This document shows positions 2,842 to 48,387 of a DNA stretch of 64,000 nt, one piece after another. The stretch comes from an uncultured Spirochaetota bacterium (GTDB taxonomy: Bacteria > Spirochaetota > Spirochaetia > SZUA-6 > Fen-1364), in NCBI GenBank assembly GCA_963781885.1, contig CAWAHW010000005.1:192001-256000 (forward strand). Direction: 5' to 3'. Made by a program: the position numbers and the translations under genes. The notes below the pieces were generated by a model that searched no databases, was not told the origin of the DNA, and saw only the letters and a list, made by a program, of their open reading frames with translations. Position 1 is the stretch's first letter; each line of letters begins with the position of its first letter.

Positions 2842-4212
2842 ATGACTGTTGTGTTCAAGCGTTGTGCGCTGGTTCTTGCCTTGTTCAGCCTTGCGGTCGG
2901 CTCGGTGTTTGCACAGAGCGCGCCGCCAGCGAACGCGTTCGGATTCAAAATGGGACTGGACTTGGGCGCGCAGACCTTCACGACTGGCGTACCCAACGAC
3001 CCAGACGCGGGAAGCTTCGAATTCCTCGGGCTCTCCCCGGACATCTCCTTCGGGCCGTTCGGAATCGGTCTCGACCTGACGATCAACTATACGTTGAATG
3101 GACCCCCGGGAGTGGCCCCCGTTGCCAACGAATTCTACATCCGCAAATCGGACTGGGTCCCCACGGATTTTGCCGACTTCCTGAGACTGTATCTGGGCAA
3201 GTTCTCCTACGTGCGATGGGGTGAGGCGGGCGATCCCCTGTTCATCAAGTTCGGCTCCTTCAAGGATGCCACGCTCGGTGACGGCTTCATCATGGGGGAT
3301 TACAACAACGCACTCTTTCTCCCCAACGACCGCCACCTGGGGCTTCAGGCGAACCTCGACGGATCGCTCTTCAAGTTCCCCTTCATTGGTCTGGAGACGG
3401 TGGTCGGCAATGTTTCCACCATGGACGTGGTGGGCGGCAGACTCTACGTGCGGCCGCTCGTCGCCACGCAGATCCCCATCCTCAGCAACCTTGAGATCGG
3501 GCTCACCGGCGTTTTTGACACGGGTCTGAATACCGACACGGCCGCCACTCCCGCCACGGTGTTGGGCGGCGACGTGCAGCTCCCGGTCGTATACGTCAAG
3601 GACATCGTTTCAATGCTGGCGTTTACGGATGTCGCTTTTGAGGGCAAGAGCGCGGGCGGCATGCTGGGCGTCGGCGGCAAGCTCCTGAACTTCATTTCCT
3701 ATGGCGCGCAGCTTCGCGTCCTCGGTTCCGGCTTCCAGCCGGGCTATTTCGGCACCACCTACGACGACTACGCGACGGGGCGCGGCGTGGAATACGCATC
3801 CCTCCAGAATGCTGCCGCGGGCGGCTTCACGTTCGGCTGGGAGTCGAGCCTGGGAACATCGTTCCTCAACGACAAGTTCATTTTCCTCGTGAAGCTCGAT
3901 TCGCCCTTCGTCACGACGGAAACGGATCCTGCGCTGACGCTGCCGCATCTCACCGGCATCCTTTCGCTGGCGGAGGGCGTCGTGCCCGGCATCACGTTCG
4001 ACTTCATCTATGACAAGACACAGATCGACAGCTTTGCGTCCCTGGTGAGCGCCAAGAACGCCCTCATCAAAGCTCAGGTGAACTTCCAGACCGGCGGGGC
4101 GGTGATCTCCTTCGTCTACAATATCACCTACACGGGAGTCCCGGACCGCAACAACAACAACAGCACGTGGGTGGTCCAGTCCGGGCTGCAGAGCTCGATC
4201 CCGCTGTTCTAG
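2842..4212 (+). CDS. Secreted putative outer-membrane beta-barrel protein
   Basis: Signal peptide (SVFA-QS), amphipathic strands, terminal Phe; similar to the C-terminal domain of the next gene. Confidence 0.75.
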   Translation: MTVVFKRCALVLALFSLAVGSVFAQSAPPANAFGFKMGLDLGAQTFTTGVPNDPDAGSFEFLGLSPDISFGPFGIGLDLTINYTLNGPPGVAPVANEFYIRKSDWVPTDFADFLRLYLGKFSYVRWGEAGDPLFIKFGSFKDATLGDGFIMGDYNNALFLPNDRHLGLQANLDGSLFKFPFIGLETVVGNVSTMDVVGGRLYVRPLVATQIPILSNLEIGLTGVFDTGLNTDTAATPATVLGGDVQLPVVYVKDIVSMLAFTDVAFEGKSAGGMLGVGGKLLNFISYGAQLRVLGSGFQPGYFGTTYDDYATGRGVEYASLQNAAAGGFTFGWESSLGTSFLNDKFIFLVKLDSPFVTTETDPALTLPHLTGILSLAEGVVPGITFDFIYDKTQIDSFASLVSAKNALIKAQVNFQTGGAVISFVYNITYTGVPDRNNNNSTWVVQSGLQSSIPLF

Positions 4213-43296: not shown

Positions 43297-45318
43297 ATGG
43301 GGCGGACGGGAATCATCGTCGGCACGCACAACCATCTTCCCCTGGGACGCAGCGAGGCGTCCGCCGAGCGGCTCTACCAGGAGGCCCTGAAGCCGCTCCT
43401 CGCCGTGCTCTACCGCTGCCCGGCGTTTCCCATGACGCTCCACTACAGCGGGATCCTGATGGAATGGCTGGAAGAGGCGCATCCCGAGTTCCTTGCGCTC
43501 CTGGGTGAAATGGTGGGCCGCGGCCAGATCGAGGTACTTGGCGGCGGCTACTACGACCCGATCCTGCCGATGCTCCCGATGAACGACAAGCTCGGACAGC
43601 TGGAGAAGATGACCACGTGGCTGCGCGTGCACTTCGAGACGCGGCCCCGCGGGTGCTGGATCGCGGAGAAGGTATGGGAGCCGGCGCTCGCGTCCGTGCT
43701 CCGCGCGAGCGGCATCGACTACACGTTCGTCGACGACGGGCAGTTTGCCCTGGCAGGAGCCGCGGAGGGATCCCTGTGGGAGCCGGCGATCATGGAGGAC
43801 CAGGGGAAGATCATCTCGCTCCTCCCCGTCGCGGACAGGCTGTCGCGGCTTGCCACCACCTCGTCGCCCGGGGAGGTCATCGAGCGCCTGCGGCACCTGC
43901 CCTCGACGTCGGGGAAACCCGGCGGTGGGGGGCATCCCCTTGCCGTCATCATGGACGACGGCGCGACGGCGGTTTCGACCTTGCTGCGCGACGGCTGGCT
44001 GGAGGAGCTCGTCCGCTGCGTCGCGGAGAACGCCGACTGGCTGGAACCGGTGACGGCGGGGCAATACCTCAAGGATCATCCGCCGACGCATCGTCTCTAC
44101 GTTCCCGCGAGCGCTTCGGCGAGCATCATGAGCTGGAGCCTCGCTCCCGGCCGGAGGGAGGCGTACGAGCGTCTGCGCGGCCAGGCGGACGCCGGGGAGG
44201 AGCAGTTCCTCGTCGGCGGGAATTTCCGCAACTTCCTGGAGCGCTACCCCGAGGCATGGCTCCTCTACGCGAAGATGATGAACACGCACGTCATGGTGAG
44301 CCAGGTGCGGGGCGACAAGTACAAGAAGAAGGCCGCGCAGAACGAGCTGTGGAAGGGGCAGTGCCACTACGCGTACTGGCACGGTGTGACCGGCGGCATC
44401 TATGAGAACGAATTGCGCAAGGCGACGTATAGGTCCCTCATCGAGGCGGAAAAGATCACGCGCGCCACGGAGATATTCGCTCCGTCGATCATCGGCGTCG
44501 ATTTCGACATGGACGGCAGCATCGAATACCTCTACCAGGGCTCGGAGCTGAACGCGTACATCCACACCGAGGGTGGGGCGCTTTTCGAGCTGGACTTTCT
44601 CCCCGCCTCCTGGAATTACCTGGACACAATGGTCGATCGTGATCCCCTGCCCGGGAACGGTGCGGAGGAAAACGCCGGATCGTCCGCGCCCTATACGCGC
44701 AAGGCTTTCATCGACCATTTCTGCACATCGGACTGCTCGATCGCGGACTTCGAGGCGGGTCGCCACCGCGAGGCGGGGGACTTCACGCGCGGGCTGTACG
44801 ACCTCGTGGAGCTCAACCGCGCGCTTCCCGAGCTCCTGATGCGCCGTGACGGCTCCGTGCTCGTCGACGGCGTGCCGCGGCCCGTCCGCATCGAGAAGCG
44901 CTTCGTGTTCCGTCCCCGGTCGATCGACGTGTACTACCGCGTCACGAATCTTGCCGAGAGCGACCTGGCGACGACATTCGGCGTGGAGATCAATCTCTCC
45001 CTTGCCGCGCGCGGGCCCGAGCATGGAAGGCTTTTCCAGATCGAGGAGAACAGGAAGATGGAGTTCGGCTCCGATGCCTCGGAGATCGACGGCGTGGGCG
45101 CCCTGCTCGTGCGGGACGTGCGCAACGAGGTCTCCGTCACGCTCTCATCGGCAAAATCCTTCCGCTCGTGGAGCGTGCCCGTGCAGACCGCGTCGCGCGC
45201 GGGCCAGAGCGAGTTCCAGTCGCACTGCTTCGTGCCGCTCTGGGCGCTGGCGCTCCACGCGGGGGAGTCCTGGGAGAACCACATGTCCGTGGGCTTCGAG
45301 AAATCCCAGAGCGCCTAG
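43297..45318 (+). CDS. Glycoside hydrolase family 57 (4-alpha-glucanotransferase-like, with C-terminal DUF1926-type domain)
   Basis: HNHLP, LHYSG, GGGYYDPIL, WIAEKVWEP, FRNFLERYPE, GQCHYAYWHG. Confidence 0.85.
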   Translation: MGRTGIIVGTHNHLPLGRSEASAERLYQEALKPLLAVLYRCPAFPMTLHYSGILMEWLEEAHPEFLALLGEMVGRGQIEVLGGGYYDPILPMLPMNDKLGQLEKMTTWLRVHFETRPRGCWIAEKVWEPALASVLRASGIDYTFVDDGQFALAGAAEGSLWEPAIMEDQGKIISLLPVADRLSRLATTSSPGEVIERLRHLPSTSGKPGGGGHPLAVIMDDGATAVSTLLRDGWLEELVRCVAENADWLEPVTAGQYLKDHPPTHRLYVPASASASIMSWSLAPGRREAYERLRGQADAGEEQFLVGGNFRNFLERYPEAWLLYAKMMNTHVMVSQVRGDKYKKKAAQNELWKGQCHYAYWHGVTGGIYENELRKATYRSLIEAEKITRATEIFAPSIIGVDFDMDGSIEYLYQGSELNAYIHTEGGALFELDFLPASWNYLDTMVDRDPLPGNGAEENAGSSAPYTRKAFIDHFCTSDCSIADFEAGRHREAGDFTRGLYDLVELNRALPELLMRRDGSVLVDGVPRPVRIEKRFVFRPRSIDVYYRVTNLAESDLATTFGVEINLSLAARGPEHGRLFQIEENRKMEFGSDASEIDGVGALLVRDVRNEVSVTLSSAKSFRSWSVPVQTASRAGQSEFQSHCFVPLWALALHAGESWENHMSVGFEKSQSA

Positions 45319-46625
45319 AGGTCGATCCTCTCCAGCTTCTGGAAACAGGCGTCGATCCACGCCGCGCTTTCCTGGTAGAAGGAGTCCTGCGCGGAGAGGA
45401 ACTCCAGGAGGGCATCGCGATCGCGCCCCTCGATGAAGTAGACCTGACCGAGATAGAATCGCGCGCGGGCCTCGACATCCGGGGAACGCGGCAGGCTCAG
45501 GAAATCGTCGAGCTTTTTCTGCGCGCCCGGCATGTCGCCGCCGAGGAAGGGACCCTGCACGATCTCCTGGAGACGCGCAATCTCCCCGTTCGGGCTCGGT
45601 GTCAGATCGGAGCGCAGCACCTGCGGCGCGGGTTGGAACGCCGCGGCCGGCGGGAGTTGCGACAGGAGCCGGCCGATCGCTCTTTCGGTGTCCGGCGCAA
45701 CCTTCCGTTCGGCGGGCAGGTCGGGGACGTCCGCGGCGGGCAGGGCGGCTCCGGATTCCACCCCGAAGCTCAAGGCGAGGGAAGGAAGCGGGAGGGCTCG
45801 ACGCTCGGCAACCGGCGCCCGCAGGGAGATGTTCCCCGATCCGACGGGAAGCTGGACCGGCTGCGCGGTGACATTGTCGCCTTTGACGAGCGGAGTCTGG
45901 CCGATCTTGTACAAGCCGCTATCGAGCACGGCGAACCAGTAATCCACCCCGGGGAGCGCGGCAAGAACATAGCGCGTTGTACCGGCCTTCAAGGCCGCCG
46001 TGGAGGTGGTCTTCAGGAGGTCTTCGGGAACCGTGAGGGGCGCGGTGCCCCAGAAGAGGAGAAGGTCGCGGCCGGGATTCGACGTTGAAAATGAAACGGC
46101 GATTCCGTCCCCACCGGTCGTGGGGGCTGCCCGGATGCCCGTGATTGCCGCCGCCAGCTTCTCCTCGGGAGCGGAGGAAGTCGGTGCAATGGGAGCGCTC
46201 GTCTTGTTGCGGAACGGGATGATGAGCGGATAGACCGTGCCGTCGGAATCCTCGAACAGCACGGCGTAGAAGTACCCGTTCCTGTCGGGAGGCGTATCGA
46301 TGTAATACTGCGTTCCCGACGCGGCCTTGCCCACGAGCTGCGCCGTCCCGATGTTTTGCGTCGTGATCTCCACGGACGAGCGGTAGACAAGGCATGTGCC
46401 CTTGGCCCCTGGCGGGTCGACCCACGAAAGCTTCACCTGGTAGTCCACCGGCTCGGCGCTCAGCCGGGAGACGAACAGGGTGCTGGTCGCATCCCCCGCG
46501 GGAGCGGACGCCTGCTGGGCCCCAAGGGGCGCGCCCAGGAGCAGCGCGATGCACAGCAGCGCGAAGCGGCGCCGCGCCGCCGGGCGGTCGAGCGATGCAC
46601 ATGCAAGGTCCGGGCGCTTCGGCAT
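45315..46625 (-). CDS. Secreted hypothetical protein with beta-rich N-terminal domains and a C-terminal TPR
   Basis: Signal peptide, RBS GGAG, ARFYLGQVYF TPR-like helix. Confidence 0.75.
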   Translation of the reverse strand: MPKRPDLACASLDRPAARRRFALLCIALLLGAPLGAQQASAPAGDATSTLFVSRLSAEPVDYQVKLSWVDPPGAKGTCLVYRSSVEITTQNIGTAQLVGKAASGTQYYIDTPPDRNGYFYAVLFEDSDGTVYPLIIPFRNKTSAPIAPTSSAPEEKLAAAITGIRAAPTTGGDGIAVSFSTSNPGRDLLLFWGTAPLTVPEDLLKTTSTAALKAGTTRYVLAALPGVDYWFAVLDSGLYKIGQTPLVKGDNVTAQPVQLPVGSGNISLRAPVAERRALPLPSLALSFGVESGAALPAADVPDLPAERKVAPDTERAIGRLLSQLPPAAAFQPAPQVLRSDLTPSPNGEIARLQEIVQGPFLGGDMPGAQKKLDDFLSLPRSPDVEARARFYLGQVYFIEGRDRDALLEFLSAQDSFYQESAAWIDACFQKLERIDL

Positions 46626-46677
46626 TCGATTCTCCTTCCCTCCATTGTTGTCGGCTTTTCAGGGTGTTGTCCATAGC

Positions 46678-46890
46678 CATGGATGGCGAGGGCCGACGAG
46701 TCCAGGGACGGACGAGAGGAGGCCCATAGCCATGGATGGCGAGGGCCGACGAGTCCAGGGACGGACGAGAGGAGGCCCATAGCGTAGCGCGGTACGCCGC
46801 GCGAAGGGCGGCAGCCCCGCTTGCGCGGCGAGAGCCGCATGGATGGCGAGGGCCGACGAGTCCAGGGACGGACGAGAGGAGGCCCATAGC
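46678..46890 (+). repeat. Three identical 53-bp repeats (46678-46730, 46731-46783, 46838-46890) containing ANGGAN-loop hairpins
   Basis: CATGGATGGCGAGGGCCGACGAGTCCAGGGACGGACGAGAGGAGGCCCATAGC occurs three times; copies 2 and 3 also share a 3' extension GTAGCGCGGTAC[G/A]CCGCGCG. Confidence 0.95.
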
Positions 46891-46967
46891 GTAGCGCGGT
46901 ACACCGCGCGTGAGGCGCTCTCCGCTTTACAGGCCTGTGCCGCGCCATTGCCGTACTATTGGCCATC

Positions 46968-47240
46968 ATGTTTGTCGCCGTGGCCTGCGATTTTGCAAAT
47001 GACGATCACCGCAAGGCAGGCTATGACCTGATGGTGCAATATGGTTTCCGCAAGGTCCTGAAGGACGCTTTCGAGAGCGCGACACTCTCCGAGACGGCGC
47101 TCAACCGTCTCAAGAAGGACCTTGACCGGATCGCCGATTCGGACGACAGCATCCGCCTCTACCAGTTTCCCGTCGATGGCACACTCGCCATCACGATATT
47201 GAAGGACAAGAAGTGGCGGCGGCTGATCGTGAAGGCGTAG
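46968..47240 (+). CDS. cas2: Orphan Cas2-like small protein (90 aa)
   Basis: MFVAVACDF (Asp at end of strand 1), YGFRKVLKDAFE, DDSIRLY follow the Cas2 ferredoxin-fold pattern and size. Confidence 0.7.
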   Translation: MFVAVACDFANDDHRKAGYDLMVQYGFRKVLKDAFESATLSETALNRLKKDLDRIADSDDSIRLYQFPVDGTLAITILKDKKWRRLIVKA

Positions 47241-47255
47241 AAGGCGGGAGGGGAT

Positions 47256-48387
47256 ATGGTGCTCAGCGAGCTGGAACAGAAACTGCAGGCCCTCGGGGCG
47301 CAGATCGAAGAAACCTGGAGGGGTCTTTGACCCTGCGGCGCTCGAGCGGGAGATCGGCGAGATCGAGAACAAGACAGCGCAGCCCGATTTCTGGCAGGAC
47401 AAGGAAAAGGCCGGCGAGGTTCTGTCGCGTCTGAAGGCGCTGAAGCGCCGCTACGACCCGTGGGCGAAGCTTCGTACGGATTTCGACGACCTTTCCGGGA
47501 TCTGGCGCCTGGCCGTCGAGGAAAAGGACGAGTCGCTGGAAGCGGACCTGCGCGCGTCGTGGGAGGGGCTTTCAAGGCGCTACGGCGAGCTCAAGGTGCT
47601 GGAGCTGCTCGGCGGCGAAAACGATCCCTCCTCGGCGTTCCTCACCATCCACTCGGGAGCGGGCGGCACGGAGGCGTGCGACTGGGTGAGCATGCTCTAT
47701 CGCCTCTATACGCGCTGGTCGGAACGGCACGGGTACACGGTGGAAATACTGGACATCCTGGAGGCGGAAGGCGGCATCAAGAGCGTGACCGCGCAGGTGA
47801 ACGGGGCCTACGCCTATGGGTACCTCAAGGCGGAGACCGGCATCCATCGGCTCGTGCGCATCTCGCCGTTCGATTCCAATGCGCGGCGCCACACTTCCTT
47901 CGCTTCCGTCTTCTGCTTCCCGGTGCTGGACGACACGATCGACGTCGACATCAAGCCTGAAGACATCCGCATCGACACCTATCGCGCCGGCGGGGCCGGC
48001 GGTCAGCACGTCAACAAGACGGACTCGGCCGTGCGCATCACCCACCTGCCGACGGGCATCGTCGTGCAGTGCCAGAACGAGCGCAGCCAGTACAAAAACA
48101 AGGCCTTCGCGATGAAGGTCCTCCGCTCGCGTCTGTACGAATACTACAAGAACGAGCGCGACAAGGACCGGGAGAAGATTGAGCAGGAGAAGAAGGACAT
48201 CTCCTGGGGCAACCAGATCCGCTCCTACACCTTCCAGCCGTACACGCTCGTGAAGGATCACCGCACGAAGTTCGAGGCGGGCAACATCCAGGCGGTGATG
48301 GACGGCGAGATCGACTCCTTCATCGAGGAATATCTCAAGATGCTTTGGCGGGGAAAGAACGATGGCGGTCAACGTTCTGATAGTTGA
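47256..48387 (+). CDS. prfB: Peptide chain release factor 2 with programmed +1 frameshift
   Basis: GGAGGGGT CTT TGA C slip site at 47325-47331; SPF and GGQ motifs; downstream frame open from 47329. Confidence 0.97.

Follow-up and report, generated by a model that had tools for sequence, protein, structure and literature searches.

The window, i.e. the whole 64,000-nucleotide stretch of DNA analysed here, carries a repeat array in a 333-bp spacer between a minus-strand gene for a 436-aa protein and a plus-strand ORF for a Cas2-like protein, which is followed downstream by prfB. The genes, promoter-like sites and array parts are these:

45315..46625, minus strand: gene for the 436-aa protein, divergent, no Pfam match; the anchor by which syntenic relatives were found
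46644..46673, minus strand: promoter-like site for the 436-aa gene (TGGACA, 18 nt, AACAAT), from a consensus scan, in a block conserved in relatives
46671..46676, plus strand: native CCATAG, kept in relatives without the array; 5' tag or insertion point of the first unit (spacer alignment by eye)
46672..46725, plus strand: module A copy 1 (54 nt; covariance model R1, 73.7 bits, and structure counts), made up in order of CNTAG tag, hairpin 1 GCC-AUGGAU-GGC, outer stem 5' arm, hairpin 2 GUCC-AGGGAC-GGAC, GAGA internal loop and outer stem 3' arm
46725..46778, plus strand: module A copy 2, identical to copy 1, one C being common to both
46782..46835, plus strand: module B, with tag GTAG, a GCGCGG-UAC-hairpin and a GGGCGGCAGCC...GGCGAGAGCCG stem (nhmmer iteration)
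46833..46885, plus strand: module A copy 3, without a CNTAG tag of its own (R1, 49.0-49.9 bits)
46886..46911, plus strand: truncated module B (tag and first hairpin only), the right end of the inserted block
46926..46959, plus strand: putative promoter of the Cas2-like gene (TTTACA 46926-46931, TACTAT 46954-46959), read by eye, not flagged by the scan
46968..47240, plus strand: solo Cas2-like gene (PF09827, 29.3 bits), also described as a 93-aa ORF

The order within the array is A-A-B-A-B'. Tandem Repeats Finder returned a 53-bp period with 2.1 copies and 100% matches at 46671-46783, a third unit copy lies at 46838-46890, and a motif count placed CANGGANG at 46678, 46703, 46731, 46756, 46838 and 46863 of the plus strand (span 46678-46870, ~190 nt). 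Both confirm what had been noticed in an earlier, sequence-only reading of this DNA, namely six CANGGANG sites on the plus strand in three 53/54-nt units, which amount to three copies with two sites each and not to six independent events. Over the 64-kb window and both strands, CANGGANG has 86 matches versus 44.7 +/- 6.5 in shuffles. As RNA, the plus strand of the array is predicted to fold at -154.5 kcal/mol (z -5.56) and the minus strand at -129.4 kcal/mol (z -2.39), and hairpin 2 is present in 3/3 copies of the plus-strand minimum-energy fold. The same reading had seen a weaker hairpin 1 in copy 3, and its 5' arm is indeed weaker there, with an R1 score of 49.0-49.9 as against 73.7 bits for copy 1. 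Its 'unpaired GAGAGGAGG' holds in part: GAGA does form an internal loop, whereas GGAGGCCC is the 3' arm of an eight-pair outer stem, in which it joins GGGCCGAC through tandem G.A/A.G pairs.

R1 gave no match in the orthologous spacer of any of 14 related loci (14/14), 12 of which keep the Cas2-like neighbour. In these 12 the Cas2-like gene is divergent from the same neighbour, with an identity of 81-90% for 11 of them and 65% for the twelfth. The neighbour itself reaches 47-73% identity only, so that the Cas2-like gene is far better conserved, and a tblastn search of the genome with its protein brought up no other close copy. Beside it, prfB shows a classical CTT-TGA-C +1 frameshift site at window 47325-47331 (plus strand), after a GGAGGGG stretch. 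A CRISPR array, considered for the adjacent Cas2-like gene, was rejected on the grounds that the units stand head to tail without spacers and the gene is conserved in array-less relatives.

Where the Cas2-like gene is kept, the spacers of relatives measure 66-160 nt and contain a conserved block ending in CCATAG and no element; three relatives have the variants CTATAA/CTATAC and one has CCAGAG. The block comprises ~33 nt (window 46640-46676 and related loci L038-L049), and both its strands show promoter-like hexamers. In this genome the array begins exactly after the conserved CATAG, and in the closest relative module B begins at the same point. Since the array sits right after CATAG, where relatives are without module A, we read it from these alignments as an insertion, specific to the lineage and placed behind a CATAG that pre-existed.

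The -35 of the promoter-like site of the 436-aa gene abuts the left edge of the array. On the other side, TACTAT lies 8 nt before the Cas2-like ATG at 46968, with 22 nt between TTTACA and TACTAT versus 17 nt in relatives, where TTTACA, 17 nt and TA(C/G)ACT end 8-9 nt before the ATG. These motifs common to relatives suggest that the Cas2-like mRNA is leaderless. With the putative Cas2-like promoter downstream of it, the array would sit between two divergent promoters and need not be transcribed, and the window copy is probably outside the transcript of the downstream gene. These observations bear on the main claim of the sequence-only reading, which saw in the array a dedicated CsrB/RsmZ-like sponge RNA gene or else a CsrA-controlled leader of the downstream operon. 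Six consensus sites on one strand within ~190 nt, in a genome that has csrA, are what such a gene or leader would offer, but the site is empty in all syntenic relatives examined in spite of their conserved Cas2-like gene (81-90% in 11/12), the units belong to a family dispersed over 32 loci, and a consensus scan of 46400-47300 flagged neither a plus-strand promoter-like nor a terminator-like site. The array is also placed upstream of the predicted -35 of a seemingly leaderless gene. To our minds, sponge gene and leader are both highly improbable at this locus.

Structure and covariation of module A

The genome comprises 4.64 Mb in 7 contigs at 63% G+C, and a BLAST-type search found pieces of the array region at many places in it. 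Iterated nhmmer collected 39 module A copies at 32 loci, and R1 scored 51 matches at E<=1, 42 of them at E<=0.01. Twenty-five simple copies of this genome were placed in a structure alignment of 54 columns, in which the CNTAG tag comes first. It is followed by hairpin 1 (an A-N-G-G-A-N loop on 3 bp), then by CGAG, by the 5' arm of the outer stem (8 nt), by GAG, by hairpin 2 (again an A-N-G-G-A-N loop, on 4 bp), by C-G-N-R-A and lastly by the 3' arm of the outer stem. The eight pairs of the outer stem enclose hairpin 2 together with a GA/GNRA-like internal loop and leave hairpin 1 outside. GGA is invariant in both loops (25/25 aligned copies), which bears out the expectation that the loops be kept among genome-wide copies, and the closing C-G pair is found in 25/25 copies for hairpin 1 and 24/25 for hairpin 2, so each loop reads C-ANGGAN-G. 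The GGA motifs of a module stand at a distance of 25 nt.

Across the 25 copies, 86.3% of cells are paired versus 30-34% with the partners slid, the covariation score is 0.395 versus 0.095 in shuffles, and 57 cells have changed on both sides; all three helices covary and RNAalifold recovers the same helices. A second set of 92 copies from other MAGs was gathered by a pattern that fixes the loop motifs, so that only its stem statistics are independent of selection, and these give 89.8% paired cells versus <=37.8% slid with 225 double changes. On the GGA strand, G.U/U.G pairs outnumber A.C/C.A by 16 to 6, an excess that lends weak support to folding of this strand.

The outer stem forms GGGCCGAC/GGAGGCCC and GGGCGAGC/GCGAGCCC include tandem G.A/A.G pairs, which fall at pairs 23-50 and 24-49 or at 24-49 and 25-48 (two subfamilies); others, GCUGCGCC/GGCGCAGC among them, have Watson-Crick pairs throughout. 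Any base occurs at position 2 of loop 1 (G 34, T 29, C 15, A 9), and the variable loop positions favour GGAU-G, with T in 52/88 for loop 1 and 63/89 for loop 2. Among the 92 copies the tag has C at position 1 in 90 and G, C or A at position 2 in 57, 19 and 15, followed by T in 81, A in 86 and G in 90. Some copies hold an extra hairpin nested in a loop and still keep UGGAU.

Four other identities were considered for the module and set aside. A mini-ORF, suggested by AGGAGG before the ATG of each window unit, fails on an ATG that is not conserved, loop position 2 being T in only 29/87. Stop-codon read-through or a PYLIS-like element after UAG does not agree with variation that follows a paired-stem and not a codon pattern. 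A kink-turn reading of the GA/GNRA internal loop does not seem to agree with the kink-turn consensus, and an integron attC site was thought improbable on account of its core sites.

Distribution, gene context and turnover

Module A has companions. Module B occurs in 14 copies (nhmmer iteration) and module C, the palindrome CCACGG-N4-CCGUGG that is often followed by CATT, in 137 copies in both orientations; many module A copies are nested in a module C loop or adjoin module B. Modules A, B and C are a mosaic of the BIME kind. R1 matches were found in 20/20 other sampled species of the genus (14-93 each) and in 4/4 sampled genomes from other genera of the family (5-35 each). In other families of the order, 4/16 genomes had a match and only one had several (18), and an even sample of further Spirochaetota yielded 1/150 genomes with matches, a distant lineage (G147, 6 matches) in which twin GGA hairpins, outer stem and tandem order are preserved and the TAG tag is absent. 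An exact pattern scan over one genome per GTDB species returned at least 113 stretches, and 80/80 among the matches listed are from Spirochaetota MAGs; the relatives of the 436-aa neighbour protein are in Spirochaetia and Spirochaetaceae MAGs. Together, these matches and the neighbour's relatives agree with the spirochaete host surmised before. In these samples the module A family is largely confined to one group of soil spirochaetes, a single family of uncultured high-GC Spirochaetota, and the literature searched offered no account of it in spirochaetes.

Other assemblies of the genus likewise show units doubled head to tail at a period of ~53 nt. At about 3855-3950 of the locus in one relative (L043), the sequence is a run of N, either masked or unassembled, precisely at the place of a repeat cluster behind the 436-aa gene. 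Repeats of this family may break or mask assemblies.

To relate the copies to genes we relied on our own crude gene calls. By these, 20 copies (15 loci) between co-directional genes are in sense orientation and one is antisense; nine copies lie between convergent and nine between divergent genes. TAG is the stop of the co-oriented ORF upstream in 20/24 clusters, and in 18/19 of those within 200 nt; genome-wide, TAG closes 34% of gene calls. In at least five clusters the TAG of the element is itself the stop codon, and several others begin right at the stop. In other MAGs, a coding-like frame ends at the TAG of the tag in 25/75 copies versus 4 and 2 in the other frames. Replication strands cannot be called from the weak GC skew (53.5% of genes are on the G-rich strand), so a replication effect cannot be shown to explain the orientation bias. 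At the DNA level the sense bias can be explained by TAG stops that act as seeding sites and by cluster growth that preserves orientation. Two module A copies at C1:304661-304769 (L053) are flanked by tRNA genes, and one of them starts immediately behind a tRNA 3' end; judging from this position, the two copies would belong to the tRNA precursor transcript.

Protection or formation of 3' ends is a role that has been proposed for REP and BOX elements. Module A might likewise be a structural 3'-UTR element that has nothing to do with CsrA, its GC-rich fold guarding the upstream mRNA from 3' exonucleases or aiding 3'-end formation. Copies just after stops and in sense orientation fit this idea, as does the stable plus-strand fold, but stability alone leaves the invariant loop and linker bases unexplained, and the consensus scan showed no terminator-like site in the window array. 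Even with mRNA stabilisation having been proposed for REPs (PMC3733652, in the part we draw on), we find such a purely structural role improbable.

Turnover of the modules is evident at several gene ends. A copy after csrA occurs in 1/19 csrA loci of the genus: in this genome only, a ~140-nt repeat cluster at the csrA 3' end (C4:176503-176690; L031 1314-1500, minus strand) has replaced the end of the reading frame, so that the protein now closes with a Pro/Gly-rich tail up to a TAG within a repeat module. The C-terminus is lengthened by this, and two GGA hairpins follow the new stop at a distance of 2 nt. The closest relative, with flanks 86-88% identical, has an empty site at csrA. An autoregulatory csrA 3' UTR was considered and discarded, the copy being present in just that one of the 19 loci. 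Another case is the gene that converges with the 436-aa gene: at its TAG stop, five relatives carry differing module sets; the same gene end has no modules in this genome and none in a relative with a TGA stop. Of seven sets of candidate orthologous copies from different species, five have retained the element at one and the same gene end, four of these with a different stem subfamily; the remaining two align poorly. Such subfamily switches at kept gene ends point to replacement or conversion and not to slow drift.

All this might also be understood in DNA terms alone, the hairpins and CNTAG being signals for an enzyme acting on ssDNA (HUH/Y1 or other), the CsrA likeness being coincidental and the RNA being without a role. 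The nesting of module A inside the loop of a palindromic module, a site that is filled here and empty in relatives, and different subfamilies at the same gene end in different species are all in line with this possibility; two similar hairpins would also suit a dimeric enzyme, and the tag resembles that of GTAG REPs, which is cleaved by RAYT (PMC3733652, as far as drawn on here). The search for the enzyme points the other way. PF01797 (Y1_Tnp) has five copies in this genome, all low-GC and IS200-like with hairpin ends unrelated to module A, and matches in 12/21 genus genomes (genomes that are incomplete, this one being searched except for 16 kb); three genomes that are 96-97% complete, with 55-62 element copies each, have zero matches. 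No strong element match was found at 29 Y1_Tnp loci, where R1 gave one weak match (20.4 bits), and among the PF01797 matches of the 21 genus genomes we found no cognate RAYT flanked by repeats. The RAYT/REPIN idea finds no support in these counts, as Y1_Tnp presence does not track the elements and the genome's own copies are IS200-like. These own copies are located at C5:309402, C2:1128940, C2:1141082, C4:799806 and C6:11014, four of them nearly identical, and each has a 150-aa Y1 transposase between two CCACC...GGTGG hairpins; the IS200-like element looks like a recent arrival that is unrelated to the module A family.

Candidate CsrA sites

The sequence-only reading presupposed csrA and fliW in the genome, and both are there, adjacent to each other. 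The 96-aa CsrA most resembles the FliW-bound protein of Geobacillus (5dmb), its whole core aligns with E. coli CsrA, and by these alignments we take it for a typical FliW-type protein. To our knowledge, the protein FliW is the only antagonist of CsrA known in the spirochaete phylum. A two-site CsrA layout is known for hag, flaA and flaB leaders. In three of four flagellin leaders of this genome (C2:1269647, C4:~168420, C4:~167040) we found a C-ANGGAN-G hexaloop hairpin (CAGGGAAG, CACGGAUG, CAUGGAUG) 20-30 nt before a CA(A/G)GGAGG Shine-Dalgarno sequence, which corresponds to that two-site layout, and these three hairpins are candidate native CsrA sites. As the flagellin leaders have the same C-ANGGAN-G hairpin, the repeat hairpins share the form of expected CsrA sites. 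The GGAU-G preference of module A agrees with the CsrA SELEX consensus, and a 25-nt spacing could be bridged by one CsrA dimer. Three-pair CANGGANG hairpins number 453 genome-wide, 327 inside coding calls and 126 outside, and 48 of the latter are module A; none of the five Flagellin_N loci has module A beside its flagellin genes.

With csrA and fliW present and hairpins of this form in flagellin leaders, CsrA binding to module A is plausible, as far as can be judged from sequence. That CsrA binds module A in vivo is a stronger claim, on which we are nearly evenly divided and lean slightly to the negative. Conservation and covariation among mobile copies can reflect copying needs and not host function. 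Conversely, the purely DNA-level explanation has to account for the same hairpins in flagellin leaders, where CsrA sites are expected, for the distant lineage that keeps the GGA hairpins and not the tag, and for the 16 G.U versus 6 A.C pairs on the GGA strand. We regard that explanation as unlikely.

The explanation we favour and think reasonably probable is that the array represents a local A-A-B-A-B' cluster of a family-specific mosaic repeat, which combines REP/BIME-like spread with candidate CsrA sites in 3' UTRs. The modules would spread and turn over at the DNA level like GTAG-tagged REP/BIME, presumably by means of an enzyme; most copies would be co-transcribed in 3' UTRs; and the 3'-UTR RNA would present two CsrA-consensus C-ANGGAN-G sites, 25 nt apart. 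If CsrA binds them, the ~45 copies would constitute a distributed CsrA-binding pool or CsrA-dependent 3'-UTR modules instead of one sponge gene. A bolder version sees a self-propagating RNA module with a dual CsrA site settle after TAG stops, by which the 3' UTRs of the lineage would be loaded with CsrA decoys as a species-variable titration layer; this we find rather doubtful. Should CsrA bind, FliW-type bacteria would have an RNA-titration component that is borne by mobile repeats and differs from species to species, and REP-like 'junk' repeats would be linked to a global regulator, the same idea that has been raised for TwoAYGGAY in Gammaproteobacteria. Should it not bind, module A would represent an ordinary, neatly defined REP-like family of an uncultured lineage. 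With its 54 nt, its pronounced structure and its abundant covariation, module A makes the CsrA link cheap to test.

Comparison with known systems

Among RNAs, the closest analogue of module A is TwoAYGGAY, even though module A falls short of its Rfam model: TwoAYGGAY is the only Rfam signal in the array, at 22.9 bits versus a gathering score of 43 and across the tandem junction, and it had no match at E<=1 in 20 further, mostly single-copy loci. In the portions of the sources used here, TwoAYGGAY (RF01731) is proposed to bind CsrA/Rsm and has tandem G.A pairs in its stem (PMC4333381), and it is described as mobile-element-like and as a potential multivalent sponge (bioRxiv 10.64898/2026.09.22.753630). 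Module A and TwoAYGGAY both have two A-N-GGA-N hairpins and tandem G.A pairs, and both are multi-copy, variable in number and accompanied by other repeats. Module A differs in stems of only 3-4 bp, in a hairpin 1 that lies outside the outer stem (both TwoAYGGAY hairpins sit on a common basal stem), in a loop position 2 that takes any base where TwoAYGGAY has C or U only, and in its home in a different phylum with a FliW-type CsrA.

At the DNA level, the likeness to GTAG REP/BIME elements consists in a GC-rich hairpin element with an unpaired (C)NTAG tag on one of its ends, in an extragenic location mostly downstream of genes, in mosaic clusters and species differences, and in the supply of a TAG stop, which GTAG REPs often provide to flanking ORFs (Di Nocera 2013, PMC3733652). 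In contrast to GTAG REP/BIME, no RAYT was found for module A. Moreover, a REP is a simple 20-40-bp palindrome, whereas module A is a 54-nt element with three helices and conserved loops that occurs in tens of copies, not hundreds, and nearly always in a single orientation relative to genes. No GTAG repeats are listed for Spirochaetes in the part of the GTAG-repeat survey that we draw on (PMC3733652).

With CsrB, CsrC and RsmX/Y/Z the array has in common the repeated GGA hexaloop hairpins on one strand and the CsrA consensus. Unlike these, it comes without a promoter or terminator of its own (consensus scans) and as part of a dispersed family, not as a discrete conserved gene, and in an organism that has the protein antagonist FliW; the array is not a CsrB-like gene. 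The CsrA sites of hag, flaA and flaB leaders, too, read C-ANGGAN-G on a short GC stem, but in leaders such a site is joined by a second one that covers the Shine-Dalgarno sequence, and translation is under their control, whereas module A sites lie after stops or between genes.

New in the present case are the host phylum, a background with CsrA of the FliW type, an architecture that differs, and a clear preference for CNTAG tags and stop codons. We take the module A family to be a variant of the GTAG-REP and TwoAYGGAY-like kinds, for which its sequence and structure make a link to CsrA plausible.
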